From assembly GCA_048201935.1 (NCBI GenBank), contig DBFBGR010000024.1:41322-105321 (forward strand): DNA of 64,000 bases, read 5' to 3'. The stretch is from Oscillospiraceae bacterium. Its GTDB lineage: Bacteria > Bacillota > Clostridia > Oscillospirales > Oscillospiraceae. The notes below the pieces were generated by a model, which saw nothing but the letters and a program-made list of their open reading frames with translations, ran no database searches and had not been told where the DNA came from. A program made the position numbers and the translations under genes. Within the stretch, counting starts at the first letter, position 1, and each line of letters starts with the position of its first letter. Below are positions 1 through 48,477 of the stretch, piece by piece.

Positions 1-1
1 C

Positions 2-6770: not shown

Positions 6771-6798
6771 GGTTTTCTTCCTTTCTTTTTTGAGGCAC

Positions 6799-6920
6799 AA
6801 AAAAGCGCTCCGGCAGGAGCGCCCGCGTCCCTCCTTATCGTTGTCAGCGGAACCACCTTGCTTGACGCAGGTTGGTGTGGGGTCATGGAGCTGACTCTCT
6901 CGCCCACTCTTGATAACGGG
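6799..6920 (-). promoter_or_regulatory. SAM riboswitch (SAM-I-like core, apparently without a P4 hairpin) plus terminator, metK leader
   Basis: Minus-strand RNA: GUUAUCAAGAGUGGGCGAGAGAGUCAGCUCCAUGACCCCACACCAACCUGCGUCAAGCAAGGUGGUUCCGCUGACAACGAUAAGG. P1 is UUAUC/GAUAA; AAGAG, CCAACC...AAGGUGG (P3) and UUCC match SAM-I landmarks. Followed by GCGCUCC-UGCC-GGAGCGC-UUUUUU (plus 6800-6823) just upstream of the metK RBS. Confidence 0.75.
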
Positions 6921-7061
6921 GTATATTCAGTTGTTAAAAGTTATTCTACAATACCCGGCGAAAAAAGTCAAGCCCTGAAAAATTCATCCTTTCGCTATGG
7001 ACTTCCTTTCAAAAATGGGCTACAATAGGTACAATATTTCCCCACGAGAGGAGCGGCGCGG

Positions 7062-7937: not shown

Positions 7938-7938
7938 C

Positions 7939-10917: not shown

Positions 10918-10952
10918 ACAAAAAAGGACCGGCGCACTGCGCCGGTCCTTTT
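10918..10952 (-). terminator. intrinsic terminator ending the surface-protein operon
   Basis: Minus strand reads GGACCGGCG-CAGTG-CGCCGGTCC followed by TTTTTT, 13 nt after the stop of the 388-aa gene. Confidence 0.8.
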
Positions 10953-10964
10953 CTTGCGGTTGTT

Positions 10965-12131
10965 TTAGACGTTGGACTGGGTGTTGTCGGTCACATCTGA
11001 GCCGGTGCCGCCCAGGGGGCCGGAATCGCTGGCGTCGTCATGGTAGCGCCAGCGCTCGTCGATCCAGCACCTGGACCAATCCTCGGGCAGGTCCTTCTTG
11101 TCCTCGTCGTAGGTGTGGTCGTTGGCAGCCTCGATGATCTCGTAGTAGGCCCAGTGGTCCTTGGGCACGTCGGGCCAGGTCATGTACTCGGTGGAGCCGT
11201 TCTCGGTGACGTTGCTGGCCACGCCCGAGTGGACGTACTCGGTCAGGCCCTCCAGGCCCTTTTCGTCCACGCCCCGGCGGAGATAGCCGTTGAAGATCTT
11301 CACGGCCTCGTCCCGGCGGATGGAGTTGTGGGGCAGGAACTTGCCCGCGTTCTCCCCGGTGGCGTAGCCCACGATCCAGCCCGCGGTTTGGGCGGTGCGG
11401 ATGTCCTCCATGGCCCATTCTCCCGCGTCGGCGATGTCCAAAAAGTCGTCCACCAGCCGCTGGGCGTCCTTGGGCAGGCGGCCCGTGGTCCGGGCCAGGC
11501 GGACCACCGCCGCCACATACTCCTGCCGGGTGATGGGCTGGTCGGGCTTAAACAGGCCGTCGCCATAGCCCACAAACACGCCGTTTTTGGCGCAGTAGGA
11601 GATGGCGCTCTCCGCCCAGTGGCCGGCCACGTCGGTGAGACCGGCGTCGTTGATGTAGATCTTGCCCTCCTCAAAGACCTCCGCGCCGGGCACGCCCTCA
11701 AAGCCCGCACGGGCGATGATGGTGGCCACGCTGCCCCGGGTGATGAGGTCGTCGGGGCCGAACTTGCCGTTGGGGTAGCCGATGACGTAGTGCTTATGGA
11801 AGGGCTCGTAGACGGCGTAGTAGGTGGTGTCCTTCTTCACCCGGATGTCCTCGGGCTTCACCAGCTCCGCTTCCTGCCCGGCGGGCAGCTTGTCCGGGTC
11901 GGAGGCCGACCAGCCGACGAAGGCCCAGCCGGTGAGGCCGTTGACGGTGGGGATGTTCTTGGCGTCGGGCTTGGTGTCGGAGGGGATGGAATCGGTGACG
12001 CTGTCGGAGCTGACGCCCTTGCTCCCCAGGCGGTACTCAATGTTGCACGGGCAACCCGCCGCGAAGGCGGAAAGGGCCAGTCCGGCCACCAGGGCCAGGG
12101 TCAGCAGCACGCTGAAAACTCGCTTGTTCAT
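10965..12131 (-). CDS. stand-alone anchor-module protein: signal peptide + Listeria-Bacteroides (Flg_new) repeat + 3 SLH + conserved C-terminal tail; paralogue of the giant protein C-terminus
   Basis: Signal peptide MNKRVFSVLLTLALVAGLALSAFAA. GWAFVGWS...TYYAVYEP (Flg_new-like). SLH repeats (HYVIGYPNGKFGPDD..., HWAESAISYCAKNGVFVGYGDG..., EWAMEDIRTAQTAGWIVGY...). The tail YVHSGVASNVTENGSTEYMTWPDVPKDHWAYYEIIEAANDH is nearly identical to the giant protein. AAGGAGG RBS; only 15 nt from the upstream stop. Confidence 0.85.
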   Translation of the reverse strand: MNKRVFSVLLTLALVAGLALSAFAAGCPCNIEYRLGSKGVSSDSVTDSIPSDTKPDAKNIPTVNGLTGWAFVGWSASDPDKLPAGQEAELVKPEDIRVKKDTTYYAVYEPFHKHYVIGYPNGKFGPDDLITRGSVATIIARAGFEGVPGAEVFEEGKIYINDAGLTDVAGHWAESAISYCAKNGVFVGYGDGLFKPDQPITRQEYVAAVVRLARTTGRLPKDAQRLVDDFLDIADAGEWAMEDIRTAQTAGWIVGYATGENAGKFLPHNSIRRDEAVKIFNGYLRRGVDEKGLEGLTEYVHSGVASNVTENGSTEYMTWPDVPKDHWAYYEIIEAANDHTYDEDKKDLPEDWSRCWIDERWRYHDDASDSGPLGGTGSDVTDNTQSNV

Positions 12132-12146
12132 TACCTTGGCACCTCC

Positions 12147-15100
12147 TTATCGGTTCCACACACGGAACCCGGCCGACAGCAGCCCCACAGTGGGGCCGCC
12201 GTCGTTCAGGTCGTCGTGATAACGCCACTTCTCATCGATCCAGCACTTGTCCCAGGTCTCGGGCACGGTGTAGCCCGTGGGCAAGGTCTCATCCACCACG
12301 TACTCGTGGTCGTTGGCGGCCTCGATGATCTCGTAGTAGGCCCACTGATCCTTGGTGACATCGGGCCAGGTCATGTACTCGGTGGTACCGTTCTCGGTGA
12401 CGTTGCTGGCCACGCCGGAGTGGACGTACTCGGTGAGCTTGCTGAGGCCCTCGGCGTTCACGCCGCGGTTCAGGTAGGCGTTGAAGATCTTCACGGTCTC
12501 GTCACGGCGGATGGGATTGAGCGGCTTGAAGGTGCCGTCGGTATAACCGTTGACCCAGCCGTTGGCGTAGGCGGTGTAGATGCCGTCCACGGCCCATGCG
12601 CCCGCGTCGCCCATGTCGGTGAAGGGCAGCTCCTTGGCGGACTTGACGCCGCTGAGGCGGGCCATGACCAGGGCCAGCTCCTGACGGGTGATGGACTGGT
12701 CGGGCTTGAAGGTGCCGTCGTCATAGCCCTTGAACACGCCGTACTTGGAGCAGTAGGCGATGGCGCTGGCGGCCCAGTGGTCGTTCACGTCGCTGTAACC
12801 GCCGGGATTGCCGTAGTCGGCGCCCTCCACGAAGTTCGGGAGCACCGCGCGGGCGATGATGGTGGCCACGCTGGCGCGGTTGATGTTATCGCCGGGGCCA
12901 AAGTTGCCGTTGGGATAGCCGATGACGTAGTGCTCATGGAAGGGCCGGCCCAGGTCGTAGACGGGCTGGTAGACGGCGAAGAAGGTGGTGTCGCCGTCGA
13001 TGGGCACGCTCTTGGGATCCACCAACGGACGCTTGGCGTCGGCCTGAGCGTCCCCGGTGGGACCGGTCAGGCTCCAGCCCAGGAACTTGTAGCCCGCGAG
13101 AGCGGTGACGTTGGGCACGGTCTTGACCTTGCCCCGGTCGGCCACCATCTCCATGACGGGGTCGGTGGTAGTGCCGTAGAGGCCCAGCAGGTAGGTGACC
13201 TGGTTGGGACAGGCGGGATCCACGCCGCCACCGCCGCCACCGCCGGGATTGGTGATGTTGACGGTGATGGTGTAGGAGGCCTTGACCACCTCGGTCTCCA
13301 GTCCGGCCTTATCCACGGCCCGGACGCCTTGGGCGGTAAGGACCAGCACGAAGACGCCGCTGCCCGCTTCGGAGGTATCCAGACCGCTCAGGTCCAGCTC
13401 CCAGGTGTTCTTGTTCACGGGCTTGCCGTCGTCGTCCACCTCCAGCAGCGTGTCATGGGGCTCATCCAGCCGCTTGAGGGTCCAGTTGTTGGTGTACACC
13501 GTCGCGCCGGTCTCCGGGTCGGTGGTGGACTTGCGTTGGGCCAGTCTGCCCGAGACGGCCAGTTCAGGCTCCTGATCCACCACGGCGACCTGGTCCACGT
13601 TGCCCACGTAAGCGCCCAGGTTGATCTTGTATACGCCGGGCTTGCTGCCCTTGGTCACCGAGACGGTGCGGGCGTCGTCCACCTTGGGGCCGGTGGTGTC
13701 GGTGGGCGCGTCCACCTTCACGTCATCGAACTTCAACTGGGCGATCTTGCCCTCCTGCTCCTTCTCGATGACGATGGGCTTGTTGGGCTCGGTGTCGTCC
13801 TCCTCGGGATGGAGCTCCACCTTCACGCCGGTGTTGGTCTCCAGGATGTACTCCACCTGCTCCTCGTCGATGCGCTGGTTGTCCTCCACGCCGGTGTCCT
13901 TGCCGTTGTCCTTGGGATCGAAGTAGAAGTAGTCCTCGGTCTCGTTGTCCTCGGTGGCAAAGCGGACAAAGACGTAGTTAGGATCGGGGATGAGCTTGAG
14001 CTTCACCCGGTAGGCGGTGTTGGGCTTGAAGGTGTCGCCGGTCTCGGGGTCGGCGCTGAGCTCACGCTTCTCGTTGCCGTTCTCGTCCAGCTCGACCCAG
14101 GTGATCTTGTAGCCCAGACGGGTCAGGCCGTTGATATCCAGGCCGTTCTCCGGGCCGTGCTCGGTGTCGCCGCCCTTGTTGATCAGATCCACGTCGTCCT
14201 TGGCGGAGACGTTGGTCAGGTTGGAGCCGTCGATGCTGTCATCGCCGCGGTAGAGGACCTGGCCCTTGACCACGATCTTGGAGACGTTGTCACTGACCTT
14301 CTGGTCCACCTCGGCGGCGCCCAGGCCGGTAACGTTGGCCAGGACGATGGGACGAGGCACGATCTTGATGATCAGGGTGTAGTCGGCGGATACGCTGTCA
14401 GCGGCCATCAGGCTGGCCTCGGCGGGCTGGGTGGTGCTACCCGTGGCGTTGACCTTCAGGGTGTACTCACCGGCGTACTTCAGGCCCCGCAGGTCGGCCC
14501 GGAATGCCTGGGCCCGGTTGTCGTGGCTGGTGGCGCTGTCGGAGCTCTGACGCGTCAGGTGGTCCAGGGTGGTAAAGGCGCTGGAGCTGGCGGAGCTGGG
14601 GAACTGGGTGCCGCCGTCGGCGCTGAGGATGCCGATGCGGTCGTTGCCGGTCTTGCCGTCCACCCGCTTGCCGGTGTTGCTGGTCACCTTCAAGGCCACA
14701 TCATAGAGATCCTTACCGCCGGGGTTCTGGAGGTACACGTCGAAGAACTCGGGGATCTGGTCCAGGTAGTAGACCACCACGCGCTCGTTCTTGTAGTCGT
14801 TGGACCACTCGTGAGCGGCCAGCTCGGCCTCGGCGCCCTTGGCGTGGTCGGCGTCGTTGAAGTCCAGACCCACGTCGGGCTTCTTCACCTCAATGTCCAG
14901 CTCCGCGTCGGCGTAGGAATAGTCGTAGGGGTTCTCATACTCCTTGGTGTCGCTGTTCAGGATGCCGGTGTAGGTGAAGGTGAAGGTGTAGCTGTTGGTG
15001 TAGGCGCTCTCGTCGGCGTTGGGGGTGCCGCTGAGGCCGTTGAACTTGGCGGGCGCCACGCTCCACACGCCGTTATTATAGGTATCACCGGCACTGTTGT

Positions 15101-18100
15101 GGGTCGTGGGCTCATCCTCGTGAGGCGTCACCACCACGTCAGTGGCGTTCTTCGTGTTGAGCACCTGCTTGAAGAGGAAGGGCGGCAGGGTGACGGGATC
15201 GCCGTCCTCGATGACGGTGTTGTCGCCGGTGGTCTTGTTGGCCAGGTAGGCCGCCACATAATCCGCGGCCGCCACAGGCACGTCAATGGTCAGCGGGGAG
15301 GTCATCACGTCCACGGTGTAGGGCACGAACTTCACCACGCCGGTGTTCTTGTCGGTGAGCTTGATGTAGACCTTCAGCTCGTCCTCCACATCCACCAGCT
15401 TACCGTCCACAGTCTTCTTCTCCACGTGGACGCCGGTGGCGTTGGCGGTGACCTTCAGACCGATCGTGTCGCCCACCGCCAGGTCGTCGGTGGTCTGGCC
15501 GTCGGCAAAGCCCAGCCAGGCGCTGGCGGCGGTGATGTTGGCCAGCATCTTGGCGTCGGCGGTCTCATCCAGCACCTTGGCCGTCTTCAGCTCGTCGGCG
15601 GTGGCGATGGCGATGGCGAACTTCTGGTTGGCAGAGTTGGCGTCGCCGGTGATGGTCATTTCGCCGGGGGTGGCCTCAAAGGCGTTGTTGCCGTAGTAGA
15701 CCTTGGCCGCGGCCGTGTCCGCGCCGAAGTCGGCGGGCTCGAAGACCGCCTCCACCCGGGCGTTGGGTCCGCCGGGCTGGAAGGTCGTCTCGGCGGCGGT
15801 GGCGTCGCCAATGACGCTCTTGGTGTCGGTGACGTTGCCCTCGTCATCCATAGCCAACTGCCACTTCACAAAGCGGTAGCCGTCGGCGGGCTTGGCGTAG
15901 ATATCAGCCGCTCCGCCGATGGGGGCGTTGCCCTGCTTCTCGGGGCCGTAGTCGTCGGCATCGCCGGTGGTGCTCACGGAGCCCCAGTAGTCGTGGACAT
16001 CGTCCTCGGCGTTGTCGTCATGGTCGGCGGTCCAGGCGGTGAAGGGATAGCCGTCGGCCTGGATGGTGAGGGTGACGGAGGGATCGTAGAGGCTGCTGCC
16101 GCCCTCCGCGGCGGTCTTGTCCACCAGCTTGCCGTCCACCAGCTTCTTCGCGCCCTTGGTCAGGTCGTAGAAGGTGATGACATAGGCGCCCACGCCGACG
16201 TTGCCGCTCTCCAGCCAATCCCGGCTCAGGGTGTACGCACCGTCCAGGTCCTCCACAGCGGAGCCGTCCTTGACGAAGGTCAGAGGCTTGGTGGTCTCGC
16301 TGGCGCCGTTGATAGCCAGAATGGTCTCGGCGCTGCCGGTCTTGGGCCGGATGGTGACCACGATGTCGTTCACGGCGTCGTCCACATTGTCGCCGCCGTC
16401 GTTATTGACGTAGTCGAACACGGGGGCGGTGCTGTGGTCCAGATCGTAGAGCTTGTAGGTCTGGTCCTTACTCAAGGTGGGCAGCAGGTCATAGTAGGCC
16501 ACCACGGTAGGATCGTTGCCGCCCACATGGTAGAAGGGCTTGAGCATCTCGTTGGGCTTGGTGTTATTCGGGTTTGTGCTGTCCAGGAAGGTGCCGCCGG
16601 CGGCGGTCTCGGTGCCGGGCAGGTCCTCGGTCACCAGATCGGCCCACTTGATGAACAGGTGGGTCTTGGCGGTATTGAGCTGGCCGGTGGTCAGCTTCAC
16701 ATCGCCGTTGGCCACGTCCACGAAGATGGTGCCGTCGGGGGCGGTGGCGGTGAGCTTCTGGTCCTGGGAGTTAGTGAACTCCGCACTGGTGGCGGTGCCG
16801 GACACGTCGTTCTGGGTGCCGGTGCGCCAGGCCTGGATGGTCACCGTAGCGCCCACATAGGTGGCGGCGATGTCGGTGCCCACATACCAGATGTCGTCGC
16901 CCTGGATGGTGCAGTAGAGGATGCAGCCCTTGTCATCGGCCACGGGCCTATACTTCAACAGGTCGGAGCCGGTGGGCGCGCCCATGCCGCCGCTTTCCTG
17001 CACCAGGGTGATGTCGTCGTTGGTGGGAGCGTTGTCCACCAGGTACTTGACCTGGGCGGCCTTATCCGTGCCCACGCTGGCGGGGAAGGTGAAGGTGCTG
17101 GGCACCTTGAACCAGCGCACCGTCACGTCGTAGTCGGCGTCGGTACCGGTACCGTAGGTGGTCAGGTTGGTGTGGGTGCCGTAGCTGGGATTGGCCTTGG
17201 GACCGCCGTCATGGTCCTGCACGCCCACCGTGGCGGTGGCCACGCCGCCCACGCTCACGCTCTTATTCAGGGCGGTGATGGACACGTCGGGCCGGGTGTC
17301 GATGTACTTGATGGACATGGACTTGGTGCTGCTGGAGGGCTCGGTGGTGTCATCGCCGGCGTTGTGCAGGGTCAGCTCGAAGGTGGCCTTGTCGCCCCGG
17401 ACCGCGGAGATGGGCGTGCCAGCCTGGCTGCCGTCAGCGGCATAGGCGGTGCTGTAGCCGTCGGTCTGGGCCAGCTTGTAGAGCTCCTCCTTGGTGTAGG
17501 TGAAGCCACGGTACTGGTCGCCGTACTTGTTCCACTCCGTCGAGCCAAGCACTGCCGGGATCAGCGACCACTCGGCATAGGGCACGATCCGGTCGGGGTC
17601 CCAGTCGATGGCGCTGCCGCCGATGGTGCCTTCCACCATAGCGAACTGGCGGCTGGCGTCATCAGCATAGCCCGCGGCGTTGATCTCCATGGACCAGTCC
17701 TTGTGCTTGTTGGTCAGGCCGGAGGTGGCGTACTCCACCAGGCCCAGCTTGTCGCCCACGCCGCCGGCTCTGGGGTTCAGGTCCCACTCGATGTCCAGCG
17801 GCAGACCGACCCAGCCCTCGTCCACGATGCAGATCTGCAAGGGCAGCTTGTCAAAGAGGCTGTACTCGTCCACCGAGGCGTCCGCGCCCATCACGTCGGC
17901 CACGTTGCCCGGGTCGTAGACCCAGAGAACGCCGTCGTAGATGCCGTAGGCCTCCTTATAGCCGGGCTGGCCCTTGGTTCCCTCAGCCGCCTTATAGCCC
18001 ACGTTCCGGTCGCCGGTGGGATTGCCGGCGGCGGAGTAGGCGTGGTCCTTGGCCCAGGCCGCGGAGAGCTCCGCGGTGCCGTCGGCGGTGCCGGGATAGA

Positions 18101-37040: not shown

Positions 37041-37123
37041 CGTGGTGGTCCTCCTTAGGTTTGTTGGCATACGCCGGGTTTGATGGGTCCCGGCGCCGCC
37101 GGGGGTCAGGTCATTGTTTCATG

Positions 37124-40100
37124 TCAGGACGTGGTGTACTTCCACGCCCACTTGGCCTCGCACTCCGCCTTACATGTGGCGTCGTCGGGCAGCTCAGAGA
37201 GACTGTCACGGTGGATCAGCGCGTACTGGAACTGGTACCAGCTAGGCTCCTTGATGAGGGCCAGAGAGCTGGAGTCGATGTAGTCCCCGCCGTTGGCGCA
37301 CATGGAGATGGCGTCCATGGTGGTGATGATCATATCCATGGCGTCTGGGTTCCCCGCGAACAACTCCGCCGCGGTGATCACCGTGCCCGCGTCGTCACCG
37401 CGCAGCAACAGGGTGTCCTTCACCACGCTGTCATCCACCACAAAGGTGAACTCGCTGGCGTCCCACAGCTCATAGTAGGCTCCCGCCGACTGCATAAAGC
37501 TGCTCCAGGTCCCGGCGTCCACCGGGATCTCCGTCTTGTCGCCCGGATCGGGCTGCTCTCCGCCGCCTCCGCCACTGGTGTCATACTTCCAGTCCCACTT
37601 GGCCTCGCACTCCGCCTTACACGTGGCGTCGTCAGGCAGAATGGTCAGGCTGTCGCGGTGGATCAGCGCGTACTGGAACTGATACCAGGTAGGCGCCTTG
37701 ACAAGCGCCAGGGAGCTCATGTCGATGTAGTCCCCGCCGTTGGCGCACATGGAGATGGCGTCCATGGTGGAAATGACCAGGTCCATGGCGTCCGGGTTGC
37801 CTGCAAACAGCGCGCTGGCGGTGATCACCGTGCCCGCGTCGTCAGAGCGCAACAGCAGGGTGTCCTTGACGATGCTGTCGCTCAACGGGAAGGTAAACGC
37901 GCTGGCGTCCCACAGCTCATAGTAGGCGCCTGCCGAGCGCATAAAGTCGTTCCAGGTCCCCGCGTCCACCGGGATCTCCGTCTTGGTGGTCTCCTCGGGG
38001 GGCTCAGGGGGATCGGGGTCCTCTCCGCCGCCTCCGCCGCCGGTGCCGTACTTCCATTCCCACTTGGCCTCGCACTCCGCCTTGGCCGTAGCCTCGTCAG
38101 GTACCTCTGCCAGATTGTCCCGGTGGATCAGACAGTACTGGAACTGGTACCAGCTTGGCTCCTTGATGAGGGCCAGGGTACTGGAGTCGATGTAGTCCCC
38201 GCCGTTGGCGCACATGGAAATGGCGTCCATGGTGGTGATGATCATATCCATGGCGTCCGCGTTCCCCGCAAACAGCTCCGCCGCGGTGATCACCGTGCCC
38301 GCGTCGTCACCGCGCAGCAGCAGGTTGTCCTTCACCACCGTATCATTAAAGGGCGAGAAGGTAAAGGCCGCAGCGTCCCAGTTCTCATAGTAAGACCCCG
38401 CCGATTGCATAAATTTGCTCCAGGTGGTGGGGTCCACCTTGATCTCCGGCTTGGAGGGCGTGGGCGGCTCCTCGCCGCCGCTGGAGGTGCCGTATTTCCA
38501 GTCATACTTCTCCGCGCACTCCGCCTTGGCCTCCGCGTCGGTGGGCACCTTGGCCAGGCCATCCCGATGGATCAGGCAGTACTGGAACTGATACCAACTC
38601 AGAGGCTTCTTCAAGTCCAGGGTACTGGAGTCGATGTAGTCCCCGCCGTTGGCGCACATGGAAATGGCGTCCATGGTGGAGATGATCATATCCATGGCGT
38701 CCGGGTTCCCCGCGAAGAAGTCACTGGAACGGATCTCCGCCCCCGCCTCGTTGGCCCGCAGCAGAAGCACGTCCCGGATCACCTTGTCGTTGATGGGCGA
38801 GAAGGTGAAGGCGCTGGCGTCCCAATCCCGGTAGTAGGCCCCCGCCGATGTCATAAAGTCGTTCCACTTGGCCTCGTCCAGGGGCAGCTCTTCCTTTTCC
38901 GGAGGAGGCGGCGTGGGCGGGGTCTCCCCGGAGTCGTATTTCCACTCATACTTGTTCTGACACTCCGCCTTGGCCTCCGCGTCGGTGGGCACCTTACCAA
39001 GACTGTCCCGGTGGATCAGACAGTACTGGAACTGATACCAGCTCAGCTCCTTGATAAGGTCCAGTGTGCCCGGGTCGATGTATTCGCTGCCGTTGCTGCT
39101 CATGGCAATGGCGTCCATGGTGGAGATGATCATATCCATGGCGTCTGGGTCACCCGCAAAGAAGTCACTGGCGCGGATCTCCGTCCCCGCGTCGTCCAAA
39201 CGCAGCAACAGCTCGTCCCGGATGACCTTGTCATCCAAAGGCGAGAAGGTAAAGGAGCCGGCGTCCCAATCCCGGTAATAGGCCCCCGCTGACTGCATAA
39301 AGTCGCTCCACTGAGCCGGGTCGATGGGCTTTTCCTTCCGCCCGCCCGGCTCAGGCTTGCTGTCCAGCGTGAACCACCAATAGCTGTCCACCGGGTTTTC
39401 CGGGTCGGTGGTGTCGATGACCTCCGCCTTCACGTCGTCATCCGATTTATATGCGCCGCCCAGCAGCATATACTGCAGTTGGTAATTGGTCATGCTGGTG
39501 GCCTGGTCGTAGGTGATACCCGACTTCAGCACCGTCTCCAGCACCGCCAGGAAGGAGTCCACATCGGCAAACTCCGCGCCCTCGCTGTCGCTGCGCAGCG
39601 CAAGGCCAGTCCCCCGCTTGTTGATGAAGTCCACGCTCTGGGGCATCTCATCCAGCGCACGGTCCGTGGTGGTCCCCGCGCCGTCGCCCACGTAATAGAG
39701 CCAGGCGGCCTTCAAAAGGCTCTCCTGGTCGGTGATGGCAGGGCCTCCCTCCCCCTGCCACCAGTAGCTATCCGGGATGCTGGCGGCGGGAAGGTAGGTG
39801 TTGGCGTTCAAAATGGCGTACTGCAGCTCCTTGGCCAGGTCCGCCTCACTCTTGGTCCCTACAGTAGCGCTGGTGTAGGGGAAATTCGCGATGGCGTCCA
39901 GCACGAGCTGCTTCGCCTGGGCCGGGGTAGTGGCGGACGGGTAGGGGATGCCCCGCTCATCCTTCCAGATGCCCAGGTCGGTCAGATCCTGGACCGTCAA
40001 CTTGTCCAGCGCCGTGGACAGCAGCCCCTCCTTCACCCACAGCCCGGCGGTGAAGAGGTCGGTGATGCTCTCGATGTCCATGGGCTGGCTGGGGCTGCCC

Positions 40101-43100
40101 CCGTCCTTCCACCAGTAGTCGATACTGGGGTCGGCCAAAATGGCGTTCTTGTCCGGCTGGGTGACGCCGCCCCCCAGGTCCTTATAGTTCAGCAGCAGCC
40201 ACTGGAACTCCTCCCACTCCATGGTGAGGGTCTGGCCATCGTCGCCAAAGAACTTGGGGTCGCTGCCGCTAGTATACAGGGCCACCAGTGCGTCCAGCGC
40301 CACGCTCTTAAAGTCGTCCACGCTGTCAAACTTGCCCATGGGGTCGGTCTTGCGGAAATAGAACTCATTGTTGATGAGGCCGATCCCGTCCTCCAGGAGC
40401 TCGTTCAGACTGGTGTCCGAGCCGGTAAAGCCATACTCGCTCACCGCCGCCAGCAGGTCCTCCAGCTTCACCGCCGGCTCCCCGCCGTCGTTCCAGTAGA
40501 GGTCCTTGCCCTTCAGCGGGCCCTCCGCTGTGCCGCTGGTCTCCGCCTCGATGTCGGCCGGGCTCTTGTATGTCCCGGTCATCACCGCGTACTGCAGCTC
40601 CTCCCAGGATATCAGCTTGAGCTTGTCCACGCTGTCATATCCGCCGCCGCCGGCGCTCTTGGGCTTGGCCAGTACCTCCAGAGCCTTCTTCCAGGCCGTG
40701 GCGAACTCGTCGGCGTCGGCAAACTTCACCGCCTCGTCGTTGCTGTCCAGCTCCTTGCGCAGCCAGCCCATGTCCGCGTAGTCCCCGGTCTCCATCCCCT
40801 CCACGTGCCCGCCGATCATCCAATCCAGCTGGGTGGGGGTGACGTTGGCCGCGGTAAAGTTCTCAAAGGCGTGGGGCACCTTGGCGTCCGGCGTCCCATC
40901 CCCGTTCATGTCCACGCCCACATACTCCAGATAGGAGTACTTCAGCACCTCTTCCCAGGTCGCGGGGGTAGGCGGCGTGCCATAGGGCTTGCCGGGACTG
41001 GGCTCCCACCAGATATTCAGCGTGGCCGGAGCGCTGGCGCCCATGCGGTTGTAGATGATCTCCTCCTGGACCTGGCTCCAGGTCACCGTGGTCCAGTCCG
41101 GGTCCGCCCCCAGGGTGGGGGCCAGGGAGGCCACCGCATCGTCCAGGTCGTCCAAAATAGCCTGCTTCAGCGCCGCGTCGGTGGTGGCGCTGTCGTAATC
41201 ATAGGGCACGCCGTCGGCCTGCATCCGGTAGCCAAAGCCGTTGAGGAAGGAGGCCGTCACCCCCGTGGTGGTGGTCCCGTTGCCGTAAAGGGCGTCGTAG
41301 GCCTTTTTGTAGTCGTTGCTGGTGGTAGGCTTGGTCTGGATCATATAGAGCGCCGTCAGCACGTCGCTGGCGGTGTTGATCTCCATCTTGATGTCCCCCA
41401 CGCAGTTGTCCATCCGGCACCAGGTAAAGCCCGCGCAGGCGCTGTCGCTCATCAAATTGGTCCCGTCAAAGATGCCGTTGGGATTCCCCGCGGCGCACAT
41501 GACAATATGCCGCTGGAGCTGATGCCAGGTCAGCTCCACGTTGCCCTTCTTGTTGTAGATCCCCGCCGGAGCGGTGGCCGGGTCCGGGTAGGCCGCTACG
41601 ATGGCGTCCACCAGATTCTGCGTATAGGTGACACACCGGGTGCGGTTGAGCGCGGTAATTGCGCTATTCTCATCCAGTTTGAGGTTCAAATCGTTAATGG
41701 TCGCCAAGGTCATCGCGGTGGAGAGCTGGCTCGTGGTATCTCCTCGGGCAGCGGCGGTGGCCACCTCCATGAGCTGGTGAAGGGTCCCCTGGGTGACAAA
41801 TCCGTCCGTCCCCTGCCGCTCCTCGTAGGGCACGCTGTCCCCCGAGCCGTCCACCTTTTCGTAGTCAAAGTTGTTCTTCAGATTCAGCTCCCCGCCGTTA
41901 GACCGGTGCTCACCTGTGACAATATTATAGCCCTCATAGTGGTCCACGAGAACATAATCCACTCTCCAAATTACGCCGCCGGCGGTCAGGTCGATGTCCA
42001 TGAGGTCCTTGTTGTAGGCGATGTTCTTCACGTAAAACGCCTTGGTGTCCGTGGAGGGGTCCAGATCCTTGTCCTCGGTGTCAAAGGCGTTCACGTCGTA
42101 GGTCAGGCCCGCCTGCACCGCCGGGTCCCGGGTCCGCCGCACCCCCTGCCAGTCCCCGTAGAGGTCGGTGGCCCGCTGGTACTGGTACTGAAAGGAAAAG
42201 GTGGAATCCTGGGTGGAGGCGTTGTAACCGTACCGGGTCACATAGAGGCTATTGTCCACCGTAGTATACATTTCGTCCGGCAGCAGGTCAGCCCCCGGCT
42301 CATACACCGCCTTGACAATGAGCACATCCTGGCCCGGTTTGAGCAGGCTGTCAAAGTCGCTAAAATCAGCAAAGCGCAGATACCGGCTGGCATCCGCACT
42401 GGAGGTTTTATAGTCATAATGGCTGGGGCTGGTCAGAGCCGCCGACAGTCCCCCAGGCTGGAACTCGATAGTCCCCCCAGGCAGGGCCTGCACCGGCGAG
42501 CCCTTGTCGGTATAGTTCGGCTCGTGCGTACCCAGTTCGCCTGCGCCAAAGGTGGTCCAGGTGTTCTCCGTCTTCACCGAGTCCTTCAGGACCTCCCAGT
42601 TCTCCCCCGCCACCTCGATCTTGGTGTTGGCCGGGTCCTCCACAATGGCCCAGCCGTAGATATACGGATACTTCCCCGCCTCCGGGTCGTCGTTGGGCTT
42701 GGCCACGGTGTAGTACTTCTCCACCGTGTCCTTGTCCATGTTGGTGGGGTCGGCGGGGTCGGGGGTGCGCAGGGTGTTGACGATGTTCATCCGCTTGTAG
42801 AACACATAGTCCAGCTTGTTGGTCAAGGGATAGTCGTCCCCGTTGGCCACCTTCAAAGCGTCGCCGCCGTTCAACTGATAGGGATACTTGGAGCCGCGGT
42901 AATTGAACTCCCGGTCCAGGGTGTTCACCACGTTTTCGTAGTTCGCCAGTGCGGTGGGGTCGGTGGGCAACTCGCCGCCGTTCAAATACTGGCTGGCCCG
43001 CAGGTCGGGGTGGATGAAGTTGCGCTCCACGTAGGAGTTGACATCCTTGCGCACGTCGCCGCCCTTGACCACCTGGGCGCCGATGAGTTCGTCGGTGTAG

Positions 43101-44551
43101 TCGTAGTAGAGGATAATGAACTTGCCGCCATCTCCGCGGGGCGCACGGAAGGTGGGGGCGTTCACCATCTTCAGCTTCAATCCACGGCCCTCGGCGGGGC
43201 CATCCAGGTAGAGCAAATTGCTGTAATAGCTGTACCCCGCGCCGGTCTGGGGGTTCTCCTGGTCGCCGTGGCCCAGGACCTTCACGCCCTGGGTGGAGGG
43301 AATGCGGATGTGCTCCACATCCTGGATACCCGTAGGCGTGGACACGCTCACCGTGCCGTCGGGGTCGGAGGCGTCAGAACCCGCCACGGCGTTGGCGCCG
43401 AGGTAGTAATAATATTCCGTTTGGGTCCAGTCCACCGGGGCCCCGGCGGTATCCTTGCTGGAGAGTTTGGTCCATACCGTCTGGCCCGCCTCGGTGGCGG
43501 CGGCCAGGCCGTCGGAGTATGCAAAATTGCCGCCCTGGGCGGTGTCGGCCAGCCAAGTCAGCGGCGTCTTGCCGTCGTTGAGGAGATAGGCGTTGGCCCG
43601 GTCCAGGCCCAGCCAGAAGCCCTCAGGCTTGGCGGCGTCGTTCTCGCCGGTGATCTGATGGTTGATATTGGCGTTATTGTAGGCGGCGTTGACCATGACG
43701 GTGTTCTTGGGGAAACGCTTGAGGTCATAGCTAAACCGGACCACCACCACAGGGGTGGAGGTCTTGAACACCACAGGCTTATTGTCCGGCGCGTGAGCCG
43801 ACAAGGTCACCAGCGCCGTTTTGGTGTTGGTGGCGGTATCCTCGTAGTACTGGTCCACCTGGGCCGCCGCGGTAAAGGCGCTGCGGTCCCCCTCGGCGTC
43901 CAGGGCGATGGCGTTGGGCCGGGGCTTCTGCAGCGTGGCCTGGGTCACGTCGGGGAAGGGGTCGGGGTCGGCGGGGCCCCACACCTCGGGATCCACGTTA
44001 TCTGCCAAAACAATGCCCCTGGGATAGGCGGCATCCTGGTCGGCGTAGCTGGCGCCGTCCCACTCGCTGTATGTAACAGACTCCACGTCCCAGTGGACCG
44101 CAGTGAGGACATCGGTATTGACCCCCACCACCGCCGAGGCGGCGGAGAAGGGATAGTAGGTCACGGTATAGTCGGTCTCGGCCACCCCGGCAGTCCCGGT
44201 CTCGATATCGGCCAGAGCCTGGGCATACTCCGCCTCAGAGAGCTCCTTTTCCGAGCCGGTGGCATAACCGGCTGCAGGGTCGGGGCCATAGATGCGCCGG
44301 GGCGAGCGGACGCACAGGGCCAGCTCGTAGAAGCCCGTAGGCGCGCCGTTGTCGTCCACCACCACATTGCCTTGGATGGTGACCTCAGGCTTGTTCTGGA
44401 GCGTTGCCTGGGGGATCACGCCGTGATCGGCCGCGGCCAGGGCAGGCGTGGCAAACAGCAGGGCGGCCAACAACAGCGCCAGCAGGCCTCCGGTCCTCGG
44501 AAGCCTCTGCCGCAACGCGTTCCATATGCAGTTGAGTTTCTGTGTCCGCAT
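37124..44551 (-). CDS. 2475-aa secreted protein; C-terminal half built from a ~150-aa Trp/Cys-containing repeat of unknown family
   Basis: ATG 44551 lies after AGGTGAGGG. Signal peptide ...GGLLALLLAALLFATPALAAA. No SLH, LPXTG or TM anchor seen. Five near-identical C-terminal repeats plus at least 6 degenerate ones sharing W-x2-(L/F)Q(Y/W) and YWW motifs. Confidence 0.85.
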   Translation of the reverse strand: MRTQKLNCIWNALRQRLPRTGGLLALLLAALLFATPALAAADHGVIPQATLQNKPEVTIQGNVVVDDNGAPTGFYELALCVRSPRRIYGPDPAAGYATGSEKELSEAEYAQALADIETGTAGVAETDYTVTYYPFSAASAVVGVNTDVLTAVHWDVESVTYSEWDGASYADQDAAYPRGIVLADNVDPEVWGPADPDPFPDVTQATLQKPRPNAIALDAEGDRSAFTAAAQVDQYYEDTATNTKTALVTLSAHAPDNKPVVFKTSTPVVVVRFSYDLKRFPKNTVMVNAAYNNANINHQITGENDAAKPEGFWLGLDRANAYLLNDGKTPLTWLADTAQGGNFAYSDGLAAATEAGQTVWTKLSSKDTAGAPVDWTQTEYYYYLGANAVAGSDASDPDGTVSVSTPTGIQDVEHIRIPSTQGVKVLGHGDQENPQTGAGYSYYSNLLYLDGPAEGRGLKLKMVNAPTFRAPRGDGGKFIILYYDYTDELIGAQVVKGGDVRKDVNSYVERNFIHPDLRASQYLNGGELPTDPTALANYENVVNTLDREFNYRGSKYPYQLNGGDALKVANGDDYPLTNKLDYVFYKRMNIVNTLRTPDPADPTNMDKDTVEKYYTVAKPNDDPEAGKYPYIYGWAIVEDPANTKIEVAGENWEVLKDSVKTENTWTTFGAGELGTHEPNYTDKGSPVQALPGGTIEFQPGGLSAALTSPSHYDYKTSSADASRYLRFADFSDFDSLLKPGQDVLIVKAVYEPGADLLPDEMYTTVDNSLYVTRYGYNASTQDSTFSFQYQYQRATDLYGDWQGVRRTRDPAVQAGLTYDVNAFDTEDKDLDPSTDTKAFYVKNIAYNKDLMDIDLTAGGVIWRVDYVLVDHYEGYNIVTGEHRSNGGELNLKNNFDYEKVDGSGDSVPYEERQGTDGFVTQGTLHQLMEVATAAARGDTTSQLSTAMTLATINDLNLKLDENSAITALNRTRCVTYTQNLVDAIVAAYPDPATAPAGIYNKKGNVELTWHQLQRHIVMCAAGNPNGIFDGTNLMSDSACAGFTWCRMDNCVGDIKMEINTASDVLTALYMIQTKPTTSNDYKKAYDALYGNGTTTTGVTASFLNGFGYRMQADGVPYDYDSATTDAALKQAILDDLDDAVASLAPTLGADPDWTTVTWSQVQEEIIYNRMGASAPATLNIWWEPSPGKPYGTPPTPATWEEVLKYSYLEYVGVDMNGDGTPDAKVPHAFENFTAANVTPTQLDWMIGGHVEGMETGDYADMGWLRKELDSNDEAVKFADADEFATAWKKALEVLAKPKSAGGGGYDSVDKLKLISWEELQYAVMTGTYKSPADIEAETSGTAEGPLKGKDLYWNDGGEPAVKLEDLLAAVSEYGFTGSDTSLNELLEDGIGLINNEFYFRKTDPMGKFDSVDDFKSVALDALVALYTSGSDPKFFGDDGQTLTMEWEEFQWLLLNYKDLGGGVTQPDKNAILADPSIDYWWKDGGSPSQPMDIESITDLFTAGLWVKEGLLSTALDKLTVQDLTDLGIWKDERGIPYPSATTPAQAKQLVLDAIANFPYTSATVGTKSEADLAKELQYAILNANTYLPAASIPDSYWWQGEGGPAITDQESLLKAAWLYYVGDGAGTTTDRALDEMPQSVDFINKRGTGLALRSDSEGAEFADVDSFLAVLETVLKSGITYDQATSMTNYQLQYMLLGGAYKSDDDVKAEVIDTTDPENPVDSYWWFTLDSKPEPGGRKEKPIDPAQWSDFMQSAGAYYRDWDAGSFTFSPLDDKVIRDELLLRLDDAGTEIRASDFFAGDPDAMDMIISTMDAIAMSSNGSEYIDPGTLDLIKELSWYQFQYCLIHRDSLGKVPTDAEAKAECQNKYEWKYDSGETPPTPPPPEKEELPLDEAKWNDFMTSAGAYYRDWDASAFTFSPINDKVIRDVLLLRANEAGAEIRSSDFFAGNPDAMDMIISTMDAISMCANGGDYIDSSTLDLKKPLSWYQFQYCLIHRDGLAKVPTDAEAKAECAEKYDWKYGTSSGGEEPPTPSKPEIKVDPTTWSKFMQSAGSYYENWDAAAFTFSPFNDTVVKDNLLLRGDDAGTVITAAELFAGNADAMDMIITTMDAISMCANGGDYIDSSTLALIKEPSWYQFQYCLIHRDNLAEVPDEATAKAECEAKWEWKYGTGGGGGGEDPDPPEPPEETTKTEIPVDAGTWNDFMRSAGAYYELWDASAFTFPLSDSIVKDTLLLRSDDAGTVITASALFAGNPDAMDLVISTMDAISMCANGGDYIDMSSLALVKAPTWYQFQYALIHRDSLTILPDDATCKAECEAKWDWKYDTSGGGGGEQPDPGDKTEIPVDAGTWSSFMQSAGAYYELWDASEFTFVVDDSVVKDTLLLRGDDAGTVITAAELFAGNPDAMDMIITTMDAISMCANGGDYIDSSSLALIKEPSWYQFQYALIHRDSLSELPDDATCKAECEAKWAWKYTTS
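37127..39328 (-). repeat. five in-frame tandem coding repeats, period ~444-465 bp (~134-aa core + Gly/Pro/Glu linker)
   Basis: The landmark CCGCCGTTGGCGCACATGGA(G/A)ATGGCGTCCATGGTGG recurs near 37290, 37737, 38202 and 38646, with a diverged copy near 39095. Protein unit: W.(D/S/K)FM.SAGAYY..WDA..FTF......V.D.LLLR...AG..I....(L/F)FAG.(P/A)DAMD.(I/V)I.TMDAI(S/A)M(C/S).NG..YID...L.L.K..(S/T)WYQFQY.LIHRD.L...P..A..KAEC..K(Y/W).WKY. Confidence 0.9.
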
Positions 44552-44608
44552 TGCCCTCACCTGCGTTTCTCGTCAGCCTTTTCTAGCCGCTCTGCCTATC
44601 GTCTCGTC

Positions 44609-46831
44609 CTACGGTCTGGCCGTTACCCACAGCGCGTCGCAAAGGGGGCTGTGGGTGTCTCCGCTGAGGAAAAATACCTTCCAACCACTGTCCAGCGTGA
44701 TCTGCTTGCCTGAGAAAGTCAGCGTATTCCCGGACAGTCTGCCCCAGGCGATATCGGTCATCATCCCGTCTACGTACTTGGCGGCAATGACCTCCGCTCC
44801 GTCCAGCAGATCCGCGGGGGTAACGGTGATCGGTATGGTGGTCGTCCCACCGGACACCTGCGGCGTACCAAGGGTCACCTTGGTCGTAATGTCCGCAGGG
44901 GTGATGGTAAAGGTCCAGGAGGAGTCGGTGAGGCCGGTCGCGGCCTGATACTTGGTCCCCTCCGCCACATCCGCGTAGACCTGATAGGTGCCCACCGCCA
45001 CCGGATCCACCGGGGAATAGTGAAGCGTAATCGCCCCCACGCCGCCGGCAACACTTTTTTTCGGCGTCACATTGGCCGCCTTGATCTGGCCGTCATAGGA
45101 CAGGTCGGCCGGGGGCGCGAAGTCAAAATCCACTGCAGAAATGGCGGGCTTCGACACATGAAGGTTCAGCGTCAACTTCCCGCTGGTGATCGCCGGCGAC
45201 GGGTCCAAGCCAAACAAGACGGCGGATTGTCCCATCTGATTGACGATAAACACCAGTGAATAGTCGCCTGCGACCATCGGTCTGCCCGTGAGGATGTGAC
45301 GATTGCCCTTCTCCTCTCCGGCGTCGTTGACCAGCTTTAGCCCCCTGAGTAGCTCTCCCTCTATCACAAAGCGGAAGGTGGCGTCAGGGTTTCCATCAAC
45401 GGGGCGGACAAACTCGTTCAAGTCGATGCTTTCCGCGTCCACGCCGTAGACCATATCAATGTCTGTGCTCTTTCCCGACTCTTCAAACCCTACCACAAAA
45501 ACAGGACGAAGGACCGTGTCCTCCATCGGCGTCACCGTGGTCACCGTCTTTGTTCCGTTTTTGCCGTCGGTCCAGCCCGCAAAGCCATACCCATCCTTGG
45601 TGGGCACCATCTGCGTGTCCACTACGACCGTCTCCCCCGCGATGCAGTGGTGGGCGGCGGGGGCCGTTCCGGTGACCCCCGCGGGGATGGTGTAGGTCAC
45701 CGTGACCGGCGCGTTCACGATCAGGCGGTTGTCGGCGTTGACGCCGATGTCATAGTCAGCGTTGTCGCTGGTAAAGCACCCGCGGTAGTCATCAGCAGAC
45801 AGTTTTACGTGGGGAGCGGCAAACACCCCCGGTGTCTCTACGCTGACGCCCACCTGGGTGTCGGACGTTAGCGCGGCAAATGGTATGCTGACATAGCAAC
45901 CTCCCGCTAAATAGAGGTTGTTGGTCCGGGAGGCCGCGGTATTGTCCCGGATGACAGGGGTCCCAGAGAGCTTGTAGGCGGTGGCTATATCCCCCACGCA
46001 CGCATATATGCCGCCGCCCTGCTCCGTAGCGGTGTTGTCCGCGATCGTGCCGCCGGTCATGGTAAACTTGCTCCCGCTAGGCAAATAGACGCCGCCGCCC
46101 CGCTCCGTAGCGGTGTTGTCCATAATCGTGCCGCCGGTCATAGCAAACTCGCCGCCAGAATCCAAATAAACGCCGCCGCCAAGCTTAGCTTGGTTGTGGT
46201 CGATACTACCGCCATACATGCGGAAGATACCATCATCCAAAATGTACACACCGCCGCCAGAGGCCGCCTCTCCCTTGCGGACGGCTTGATTACCGGTGAT
46301 GCTGCCACCATAGAGCTCCAGCGTTCCGCCGCTCGCCCGCACGCCGCCGCCACCAGCAGACTTGCCGCCGGTGACCTTACCGCCGCCGGCGCAGTCGCAC
46401 AGACGCAGCGTAGCCCCAGCTCTCACGGTGATGACGCTACCCGAGCCGCCCGCGTCCAAGGTGTGGCCGTTCAGACAGAGGTCCACAGACTCACCCGCAG
46501 GAACGTTCAGATTGCCTGTAAGATCGCCACTCAAATAGTACTTCCCCGCGCTTAGGTCGGCCGTGGCTGAGACAGGGCTCCAGTCGGTGTGGTCTCCCAC
46601 CGCGTCGTGGAGCGCGTCATTCGTGGCGCTTAGCGCGGCGGGAAGCTCGTCCTCCGGCGTCACGTCCACAACGTCAGGCGTGCCCGCGCGCGGACGCTCC
46701 GCCGCCACCGCCTCCTCGCCCATAGGGGTCTCGGCCACGGTGGGGGCATCCATGATCGTGGCCGCGCCGGCCCGGACGGGCAGCATTAGAGCGCAGACGA
46801 GCAGCCCCATCCATATATGAAGTTTTTTCAT
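44609..46831 (-). CDS. 740-aa secreted parallel beta-helix (Pmp-like GGG-V/FxxN repeat) protein with Flg_new and Ig-like C-terminal modules
   Basis: ATG 46831 lies 9 nt after GAAGGGA. Signal peptide MKKLHIWMGLLVCALMLPVRAGAA. CLNGHTLDAGGSG...LRLCDC, then repeated GGGVY...F.M.GG.I..N.A units. GYGFAGWTDG (Flg_new). No recognisable wall anchor. Confidence 0.8.
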   Translation of the reverse strand: MKKLHIWMGLLVCALMLPVRAGAATIMDAPTVAETPMGEEAVAAERPRAGTPDVVDVTPEDELPAALSATNDALHDAVGDHTDWSPVSATADLSAGKYYLSGDLTGNLNVPAGESVDLCLNGHTLDAGGSGSVITVRAGATLRLCDCAGGGKVTGGKSAGGGGVRASGGTLELYGGSITGNQAVRKGEAASGGGVYILDDGIFRMYGGSIDHNQAKLGGGVYLDSGGEFAMTGGTIMDNTATERGGGVYLPSGSKFTMTGGTIADNTATEQGGGIYACVGDIATAYKLSGTPVIRDNTAASRTNNLYLAGGCYVSIPFAALTSDTQVGVSVETPGVFAAPHVKLSADDYRGCFTSDNADYDIGVNADNRLIVNAPVTVTYTIPAGVTGTAPAAHHCIAGETVVVDTQMVPTKDGYGFAGWTDGKNGTKTVTTVTPMEDTVLRPVFVVGFEESGKSTDIDMVYGVDAESIDLNEFVRPVDGNPDATFRFVIEGELLRGLKLVNDAGEEKGNRHILTGRPMVAGDYSLVFIVNQMGQSAVLFGLDPSPAITSGKLTLNLHVSKPAISAVDFDFAPPADLSYDGQIKAANVTPKKSVAGGVGAITLHYSPVDPVAVGTYQVYADVAEGTKYQAATGLTDSSWTFTITPADITTKVTLGTPQVSGGTTTIPITVTPADLLDGAEVIAAKYVDGMMTDIAWGRLSGNTLTFSGKQITLDSGWKVFFLSGDTHSPLCDALWVTARP

Positions 46832-46955
46832 CGCGCTCACATCCCTTCGGCCCTAGAGTGGCAAGCGGTCAGACAAATTTCGCCGCGCCCGTTTTCTTCC
46901 AGATATTACCAGCTTTTAGCTGTGTTCATGGCATAAAGACACAGTTTCATGATTG

Positions 46956-46984
46956 ATTATAAACCAAGCCGAGGCAAAATGCAA
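46956..46984 (-). promoter_or_regulatory. sigma-A-type promoter of the surface-protein operon
   Basis: Minus strand reads TTGCAT (46984-46979), 17 nt, TATAAT (46961-46956), with an upstream A-tract CGAAAAAAATG. It predicts a leader of roughly 115 nt before ATG 46831. Confidence 0.6.
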
Positions 46985-47008
46985 CATTTTTTTCGAAATA
47001 TGTAAACC

Positions 47009-47055
47009 AAAATATAGCAAAAAGCAGACTCGCCCGCTTTTTCCCGCGGACGAGT
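47009..47055 (-). terminator. intrinsic terminator after prfB
   Basis: GCAGACTCG (47014-47022) pairs with CGAGTCTGC (47041-47049), with an inner CCGC/GCGG helix. T-run on the minus strand, A/T runs on both sides. Confidence 0.75.
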
Positions 47056-47085
47056 CTGCTTTTTCTTGATAACAGGGAGATTTCC

Positions 47086-48207: not shown

Positions 48208-48267
48208 GGTTTCACACAACTCTCAAAATAGGATCACAGGATATTATATCCAAAATCAGCTCTCGCG

Positions 48268-48477
48268 TCAATCCTTGGGCTTGAGAGGCCGTTTCGTACC
48301 GTCGGGCTCCTGGATGACGGTGTGCTCCAACTGGGCGGTGAGATTGGCCCGCACCGCCTCCACATAGCGCCGGCGCAGGTCCTGCTGCTCGGCGCGCTCG
48401 TCGTCGGTGAGGCCCTCCGGGCTCTTGGCCTTCCGGGCCAGGGCGTTGATGCGCTGGATGTCGGCTTGTGTGATCAT
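48268..48477 (-). CDS. DUF896/UPF0291 (YnzC-like) small protein
   Basis: MITQADIQRINALARKAKSPEGLTDDERAEQQDLRRRYVEAVRANL is typical of the family. GGAGGT RBS upstream of ATG 48477. Confidence 0.75.
   Translation of the reverse strand: MITQADIQRINALARKAKSPEGLTDDERAEQQDLRRRYVEAVRANLTAQLEHTVIQEPDGTKRPLKPKD

Follow-up and report, generated by a model that had tools for sequence, protein, structure and literature searches.

A candidate SLH-anchored surface module encoded by a conserved three-gene cluster of gut Oscillospiraceae

Layout of the gene cluster

We analysed a stretch of 64,000 nucleotides (nt) from an Oscillospiraceae bacterium (GenBank assembly GCA_048201935.1, contig DBFBGR010000024.1, positions 41,322 to 105,321 of the forward strand; hereafter the window), in which four consecutive genes on the minus strand, here called g1 to g4, encode secreted proteins. 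Three of these genes, g2, g3 and g4, recur together in other genomes and may specify a fibre or adhesin held at the cell wall by S-layer homology (SLH) domains. The first gene, g1 (44609..46831), encodes a protein of 740 amino acids (aa) that combines a right-handed beta-helix with a probable Listeria-Bacteroides repeat and a beta region at the C-terminus. It is followed by g2 (37124..44551), whose 2475-aa product belongs to an unannotated family, by g3 (12147..37040), which encodes an 8297-aa giant made of diverged beta-type modules and a wall-anchor module, and by g4 (10965..12131), a stand-alone copy of the anchor module (388 aa).

Four co-oriented minus-strand genes with these product lengths had been proposed from the letters alone (the original prediction), and the gene models bear this out. 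The open reading frames (ORFs) that span the genes run over 44609-46840, 37124-44560, 12147-37070 and 10965-12131. Taking the first ATG behind a Shine-Dalgarno sequence as the start codon yields 740, 2475, 8297 and 388 aa, and the public gene calls agree on all four lengths. g3 is a single uninterrupted ORF; a separate Logan assembly, in which 8297 aa are also called, matches residues 4971-8297 of its product at 100% identity. Measured from the ATG start of g2, the intergenic gaps are 57 nt (g1-g2), 83 nt (g2-g3) and 15 nt (g3-g4). The latter two had been given correctly, whereas the 48 nt originally assigned to the first gap apply only to an upstream GTG start of g2, which would give 2478 aa. 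Similarly, ribosome-binding sites that had been described as good throughout are so at g3 and g4, both of which have AAGGAGG, but are weaker at g1 and g2 (GAAGGGA and GGTGAGGG).

All four products carry a predicted Sec-type signal peptide, as had been proposed: by direct reading and a hydropathy scan, the sole hydrophobic segment of each is N-terminal and precedes an Ala-X-Ala-type site. The hydropathy scan revealed no C-terminal transmembrane segment or LPXTG signal in any of the four, so that none has the hallmarks of a sortase-anchored protein, and Pfam scans found no SLH domain in g1 or g2, in keeping with the earlier view that these two lack a wall or membrane anchor of their own. The minus strand carries all of the domains, signal peptides and homologues, and the public gene calls fall on it as well. 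Long ORFs are also present on the plus strand opposite g3 and g2, at 11040-24185 (4381 aa), 28293-34889 (2198 aa) and 39479-44713 (1744 aa). Read directly, the 4381-aa and 1744-aa antisense translations are of low complexity and rich in Gly, Val, Ala, His and Leu, and these shadow ORFs look like a codon-bias by-product of a high-GC genome (the G+C content of the window is 60-71%).

Conservation of gene order and uneven divergence

We compared the window with 14 distinct fetched loci (L002/5, L003/10, L004/7, L008, L012, L013, L029, L014-L017 and L019-L021). The g2-like gene adjoins a giant ORF in all 15 loci, the window included, that have enough flanking sequence, the giant following it directly wherever the downstream side is visible. 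Giant ORFs stand on both sides of it in L014-L016; in L017, where the contig ends inside the g2-like gene, only the upstream giant ORF is visible. Junctions between g2-like and giant genes are tight, with a 4-nt overlap in L003 and a spacing of 18 nt in L029. The other end of the cluster is equally compact. Homologues of g4 (n=45, most of 327-389 aa) were looked up in four other genomes, and in all four (L023, L024/25, L026 and L030) the g4-like gene begins 15-16 nt after a giant SLH gene, the giants encoding 7013, 6319, 4816 and 5540 aa, respectively.

The complete trio was found in four genomes, namely the window, CANQFT010000001 (L004 and L023), NODE_70 (L003 and L024) and k141_1964642 (L029 and L030), and its position is identical in all of them, between rny/prfB and luxS-pfs-rhomboid-metK. 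The co-occurrence that the original prediction had offered for a synteny check is thereby verified for g2, g3 and g4. Of the operon of four genes that it proposed, this core is what is conserved across genomes, whereas the membership of g1 did not hold up: among the related loci a g1 homologue is present only in L002/L005, the closest relative (identities of 36% in the N-terminal part and 52% in the C-terminal 120 aa), and in the others g2 comes directly after rny or prfB. What is conserved as a unit is therefore g2-g3-g4; g1 lies outside it, as an accessory gene specific to its lineage.

A homologue search with a 2381-aa piece of g3 returned no scored match, and the orthologues of g3 were identified only from the genes beside g2 and g4. 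These orthologues (5540-7013 aa) are colinear with g3, with bodies that are 26-34% identical and anchor modules that are 46-85% identical. The disparity is seen well in L023, whose giant shares 84-85% of residues with g3 in the anchor and 31-34% in the body. Likewise, in a genome whose g2 is only 42% identical, the g4 orthologues reach 76-77%. The g2-giant-g4 order and the 15-16-nt spacing of g3 and g4 thus persist at 26-50% protein identity, and this conserved gene order argues for a functional linkage of the three genes. A constrained wall module joined to a fast-evolving distal body is, judging from these comparisons, what would be expected of an anchored fibre that faces a variable partner.

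The free anchor copy and the anchor of the giant cluster apart, with 77% identity within the window/L023 pair of g4 proteins, 84% between the g3 C-termini of the same two genomes and 55-59% in the cross-comparisons. The duplication therefore predates the split between the window and L023 species. On these identities we take g4 to be an old, separately conserved duplicate of the g3 anchor module. In L026 (AP025582.1, 2877273-2898379), from the complete genome of the isolate Oscillospiraceae bacterium CE91St43, the gene for a giant SLH protein of 4816 aa is separated by 15 nt from a g4-like gene downstream of it. There, the g4 copy is 83% identical to the C-terminus of its own giant, which suggests gene conversion.

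The giant protein and its free anchor paralogue

The g3 product contains 14% Thr and 0.1% Cys. Iterated searches with hidden Markov models (HMMs) resolved two kinds of internal module, one Flg_new-like and of ~105 aa (at residues 1761, 2088, 2444 and 2905), the other of ~60 aa (at 1893, 2240 and 2715). Beyond these lies a super-repeat of ~650 aa in ~3.5 copies (residues 3450-5540), followed by an apparently non-repetitive region (5600-7940). Searches of the g3 body against Pfam, NCBIfam and PDB sequences gave nothing above threshold. When g2 and ten pieces of g3 were scanned with Pfam at a relaxed threshold (E <= 1), only sub-threshold matches appeared outside SLH (Sgo0707_N2, CBM_X2, Flg_new_2 and WxLIP_PGBD), on which we do not rely; in g3, Flg_new_2 reached 21.2 bits, under its cut-off of 23.6, and WxLIP_PGBD a sub-threshold E-value of 0.035. 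The orthologous giants carry precomputed matches to Flg_new or Flg_new_2.

In the anchor module of g3 (residues 7944-8297; 12150..13211, minus strand), a small beta domain that is Flg_new-like precedes three SLH motifs, and a conserved tail of ~110 aa completes the module. Pfam recognised SLH (PF00395) in three stretches of the g3 C-terminus with 101.3 bits and in g4 with 87.2 bits, against a cut-off of 20.8, and the PDB sequences matched by the SLH region are those of the Sap SLH domain (entries 6bt4 and 3pyw, E 1e-6). The product of g4 is paralogous to the final ~350 aa of g3 (55% identity) and has the same three-part layout, so its earlier description as a free anchor module was accurate. 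That both proteins end in three SLH repeats is right as to the repeats but not as to the literal end, since the ~110-aa tail comes after them. Among the four products the domain was confined to g3 and g4, which agrees with the proposal that only the last two products are wall-anchored.

An unannotated partner family with a helical repeat

Behind its signal peptide, g2 comprises a conserved beta-rich head of ~880 aa (residues ~40-920) and 11 helical units of 125-150 aa (residues 921-2475), which we mapped by iterated HMM search. The protein had no match in Pfam (even at E <= 1), NCBIfam, PADLOC or PDB sequences. Its last five units (residues 1733-2475), the most recent ones, are 55-87% identical at the protein level and form a tandem DNA array at 37136..39310 on the minus strand, whose period Tandem Repeats Finder put at 444 nt (4.8 copies, 75% matches). 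Two further assemblies, L027 and L028, from the same organism stop inside this array, at about residues 1978 and 1812, and the repeat number of g2 is therefore the least certain part of the gene model. The cluster at 90% identity that contains g2 is represented by a 511-aa fragment.

We retrieved 75 homologues of g2, with lengths of 1639-2284 aa. None has a name in its source, and all except one (P0048, discussed below) are free of Pfam domains. The head of the family has dozens of invariant residues, while the unit array varies from 4 to 9 copies in the homologues. No His is found among the conserved residues of the family, and no Cys except the nearly invariant C80. An AlphaFold2 model of the head (residues 41-1000, 71 aligned sequences) was mostly beta, with a predicted local distance difference test score (pLDDT) of 80 and a predicted template modelling score (pTM) of 0.52, and a Foldseek search of this model against the PDB gave nothing at E <= 0.001 and no enzyme-like fold. 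The absence of a conserved His, Cys or Ser pattern and of an enzyme-like fold match is weak negative evidence on an enzymatic role of the head.

A single helical unit was modelled with higher scores (64 aligned sequences, pLDDT 91.4, pTM 0.84), and the model had no structural neighbour in the PDB (best E 1.6) or BFVD (best E 0.76). Searching 1.84 billion cluster representatives with the unit profile retrieved 111 proteins, almost all of them g2-like or fragments, and a Pfam scan of ten shorter matches found incidental domains only. With a profile almost confined to g2-like proteins and no fold neighbour, the unit can be ruled out as a general wall-binding module, which supports the view that g2 has no recognisable anchor. 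One weak match of the profile (E 2e-5, to the C-terminal half of the unit) was to P0205, which has 405 aa and begins with a phage tail-collar fibre domain (PF12571, E 1e-37); the g2 units found no match in a phage genome collection. In a taxonomic scan of 185,579 species genomes, the g2 family was present only in gut genomes of Oscillospiraceae/Clostridia, from rabbit, mouse and human, and in the cultured Vermiculatibacterium agrestimuris DSM 112226. Paired values of unit number and giant length are available for five genomes, (11, 8297), (8-9, 8294), (8, 6319), (6, 7013) and (5, 5540), which are too few points to use.

The beta-helix gene g1

The beta-helix of g1 was recognised just above the Pfam cut-off (Beta_helix, PF13229, 26.8 bits against 25.9) and is thus marginal, although it does place g1 among beta-helix proteins. 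The Listeria-Bacteroides repeat was found as TIGR02543 (21.6 bits, cut-off 20.95), while Pfam Flg_new, with 25.2 bits, stayed under its cut-off of 27. Comparing g1 with PDB sequences and PADLOC brought up nothing of use.

Transcription signals and cluster boundaries

Upstream, the cluster is bounded by an intrinsic terminator at 47019..47064 on the minus strand (a 19-pair stem followed by a T-run). It belongs to prfB: the translation of ORF 47086-48219 looks like that of a class I peptide-chain release factor, and the counterparts at this position in related loci have PCRF and RF-1 domains. By direct reading, a promoter-like TTGCAT-17-TATAAT lies at 46956..46984 on the minus strand, 34 nt downstream of the prfB terminator. 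Its -10 hexamer is perfect, as the original prediction of one near-consensus promoter implied, but the -35 hexamer has only 3/6 matches to TTGACA, which is hardly near consensus; the promoter scanner did not list the site because its -35 has fewer than 4/6 matches. No riboswitch or other leader RNA was found by Rfam in the 118-nt 5' untranslated region.

The cluster ends at an intrinsic terminator at 10918..10952 on the minus strand, GGACCGGCGC-AGT-GCGCCGGTCC followed by T6, with a perfect GC-rich stem of 10 bp and a 3-nt loop. The pattern scanner missed this site, which had been proposed as a hairpin-plus-U-tract terminator; its fold energy (centroid -27 kcal/mol) and a comparison with shuffled sequences (z = -4.65; 0/200 fold equally well) confirm it. 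A scan of the gaps between g1 and g4 found no minus-strand terminator-like site, and the minus-strand promoter-like sites within the genes are all weak (9/12 matches). Because of the gene spacing and the lack of intergenic terminators, a single predicted transcript of 36 kb covering g1 to g4 is plausible. Promoter-like hexamer pairs are over-represented in 28500-48400 (16 against 4.5 +/- 1.6 expected), mostly on the plus strand, antisense to g2 and g3; this excess is probably an artefact of a Thr/Tyr/Val-rich codon composition and not a set of real promoters.

Flanking genes and chromosomal setting

Immediately beyond the terminator, and outside the unit, lies another SLH gene (9135..10847, minus strand), which encodes a 570-aa phosphatase with three SLH stretches (67.5 bits), SAM_HAT_C and Y_phosphatase3 and has a strong terminator of its own at 9123-9090. 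Relatives have an SLH 5'-nucleotidase, a small SLH protein or a Y_phosphatase3 protein in its place, and often a gene for a short histidine kinase (HisKA) right after g4, one that the window lacks. Further along, a S-adenosylmethionine (SAM) riboswitch (RF00162, 47.3 bits; 6832-6919, minus strand) sits directly upstream of metK (5589-6800, minus strand), the expected arrangement. The G+C content reaches its maximum, up to 71%, in the first 2100 nt of the window (1-2100), and the longest ORF of the first 2 kb (97-2103, plus strand, 668 aa) has no Pfam match. The housekeeping flanks and the lack of tblastn matches in phage or plasmid collections rule out an origin of the cluster in a mobile element.

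Proposed role and alternative explanations

We consider the locus to be a functionally linked, SLH-anchored fibre or adhesin module of gut Oscillospiraceae, a reading to which we assign a probability of about 0.55. A triple SLH module is known to bind pyruvylated secondary cell-wall polymer non-covalently. In the scheme that we propose, g1 to g4 would be co-transcribed from the promoter upstream of g1, with g3 and g4 translationally coupled, and the products of g3 and g4 would bind this polymer, again without a covalent bond, through their SLH domains. The g3 protein would then project from the wall as a fibre of a few hundred nanometres, whose fast-evolving distal part may mediate adhesion to host, food or other cells. 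The anchorless g2 protein might be retained on the cell by protein-protein contact, either with g3 or with the beta domain that g4 and g3 have in their anchor modules, or with both; if g2 is retained in that way, g4 could supply extra docking sites on the wall. The g1 protein would be a lineage-specific accessory passenger. That g2 docks specifically on the anchor module is a more tentative proposal, which we think somewhat unlikely.

Several points weigh against this interpretation. The promoter that would drive the cluster is weak in its -35 hexamer. In g2 and g3, Pfam found no known domain for adhesion or ligand binding above threshold, and g2 could be released into the medium. The pyruvyl transferase CsaB, which bears on the presumed SLH ligand, was not among the scanned ORFs, although this check extends only as far as the 64-kb window. 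In the distant loci, no homology to g3 is detectable in the giant beside the g2-like gene, so that any contact between g2 and the giant would have to use a generic feature. Assembly may have affected the copy number of the g2 repeats, and a system of all four genes is at best lineage-specific because g1 is not conserved.

One alternative is that the genes form a surface-protein island without a physical complex, in which independent proteins are clustered and co-regulated for a shared niche and g1 and g2 are free exoproteins. Pfam scans identified no interaction domain that would speak for a complex, the presence of g1 varies between genomes, and the flank also gathers unrelated SLH enzymes (phosphatase, 5'-nucleotidase), as a general envelope-protein neighbourhood would. 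Such an island would not, however, be expected to keep the order of g2, giant and g4 and their tight or overlapping junctions over deep divergence, nor to have a giant ORF beside the g2-family gene wherever flank is available; moreover, the g2 family is essentially never found in another architecture. We regard this explanation as unlikely. The best fold matches of the g2 head in the PDB raise a different one, since nearly all are type II cohesins (top match 4wi0_A, E 4.6e-3, probability 0.97, target TM-score 0.38, with ~20 further cohesin chains). The g2 protein could then be scaffoldin-like in a non-cellulosomal assembly of cohesin-dockerin type, its cohesin-like head sandwich docking on a dockerin-like module of a partner, with g3 and g4 as SLH anchoring scaffoldins; an anchorless modular protein followed by SLH-anchored ones does parallel the anchoring clusters of cellulosomes. 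In two distant loci, L020 and L021, the g2-head-like protein is preceded immediately upstream by a protein of ~2050 aa in which Dockerin_1 is found above threshold (28.8 and 38.1 bits). The fold matches of the head nevertheless fall short of E <= 0.001, with target-normalised TM-scores of 0.3-0.4 and a root-mean-square deviation of ~11 A. Neither Pfam Cohesin (PF00963) nor Dockerin matched g2, g3 or the C-terminal half of g1 at E <= 1, or full-length g1 and g4 at E <= 0.01, the g2 family profile finds no cohesin among PDB sequences, and hhalign against the CipA cohesin (sequence verified against 1AOH) gave a probability of 0.1. The only EF-hand-like loops are single (g2 residue 1214, g3 residue 5024) and not paired dockerin repeats (PF00404), and no glycoside hydrolase or carbohydrate-binding module was detected above threshold as cargo. 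On balance, an assembly of this type seems improbable. The Dockerin_1 proteins themselves (L020 2829-8972, L021 2838-8996, both from metagenome-assembled genomes of rabbit-gut Clostridia) also carry Flg_new_2 and Cadherin-like domains; their dockerins are the only true ones among eight scanned proteins of these loci, where the g2-head-like proteins reach only 805 or 832 aa.

The giant fibre and g2 might, alternatively, present or deliver effector domains to neighbouring cells, in a contact-dependent antagonism device resembling polymorphic toxins, whose typical layout is a C-terminal toxin after a repeat body. This idea comes from P0048 (L031 901-7590, 2229 aa), which ends, after its helical units, in a barnase-type ribonuclease (PF00545, 51 bits, residues 2115-2214). 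It is, however, the only one of the 75 g2 homologues with a toxin tip, and its contigs end too soon to show an immunity gene. The g2 of the window ends exactly with unit 11, has no toxin domain and is not followed by an immunity-like small gene, and PADLOC gave no match; we therefore think this very improbable. The ribonuclease tip of one relative and the true dockerins of distant relatives also underlie a more far-reaching version of the anchored-module interpretation. According to this, g2, g3 and g4 would make up an undescribed surface machine specific to gut Oscillospiraceae, in which the anchor module docks a partner whose helical arm of orphan fold presents functional tips, as a display or delivery platform analogous to the cellulosome and unrelated to it. 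We put this forward as a long shot, no likelier than the cohesin-type assembly.

Comparison with known systems and significance

The SLH-bearing products resemble the S-layer-associated proteins of Firmicutes such as Sap and BSL of Bacillus anthracis (3PYW, 6BT4) in having an N-terminal signal peptide and a triple SLH module. They differ in that the SLH motifs are C-terminal here, preceded by the Flg_new-like domain and succeeded by the conserved ~110-aa tail, and in that they are carried by an 8297-aa protein and duplicated as a stand-alone gene, with a passenger that has no recognised domain. The clusters for cellulosomes (cipA-olpB-orf2p-olpA of C. thermocellum, scaA-D of Acetivibrio cellulolyticus) also encode an anchorless large modular protein beside SLH-bearing ones, and the likeness extends to the weak cohesin-like fold matches of the g2 head and to the dockerin-bearing neighbours in the two distant loci. 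In the present cluster, by contrast, cohesins and dockerins are not detectable by sequence, carbohydrate-active enzymes are absent, and the anchored protein is a proposed giant fibre rather than a short cohesin array.

Csc/WxL clusters of Lactobacillales are operons of secreted proteins, some of them wall-anchored, that are thought to form one surface complex. The concept is the same; the present cluster, however, has no WxL domain, DUF916 or LPXTG, the sole trace being the sub-threshold WxLIP_PGBD match in g3. A role in adhesion has been proposed for the giant Listeria-Bacteroides-repeat proteins of gut Clostridia (preprint 10.1101/2023.11.21.568195). Like these and other giant repeat adhesins of Gram-positive bacteria, g3 is thousands of residues long, is built of diverged tandem beta modules that include Flg_new-like ones, comes from the mammalian gut and has a presumed adhesive role. 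Unlike them, it is anchored by SLH instead of LPXTG/sortase or a transmembrane segment, and a partner of the g2 family and a free paralogue of the anchor consistently accompany the giant. Giant Listeria-Bacteroides-repeat proteins and SLH anchoring are thus already known kinds, while the pairing with g2, the free anchor paralogue and the orphan-fold unit are apparently new: no description of these was found in the literature and libraries searched. This agrees with the original prediction, which did not recognise the gene combination as a described system; Pfam, NCBIfam, PADLOC and PDB provided no name for g2 or for the body of g3.

Oscillospiraceae are abundant, mostly uncultured gut bacteria whose surface biology is almost unknown, and this locus devotes 36 kb to the cell surface. 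It defines a conserved and testable module of three genes, one of which, g2, represents a family without annotation whose repeat unit is confidently modelled and has no structural neighbour. A conserved anchor combined with a fast-evolving fibre is a pattern typical of host- or partner-binding structures. Cultured relatives are at hand in Vermiculatibacterium agrestimuris DSM 112226, which has a g2-like gene between giant ORFs, and in Oscillospiraceae bacterium CE91St43, with its pair of giant and g4. Should it be true that g2 docks on the anchor module of g3 and g4, this would be a new route to the non-covalent display of proteins on Gram-positive walls.

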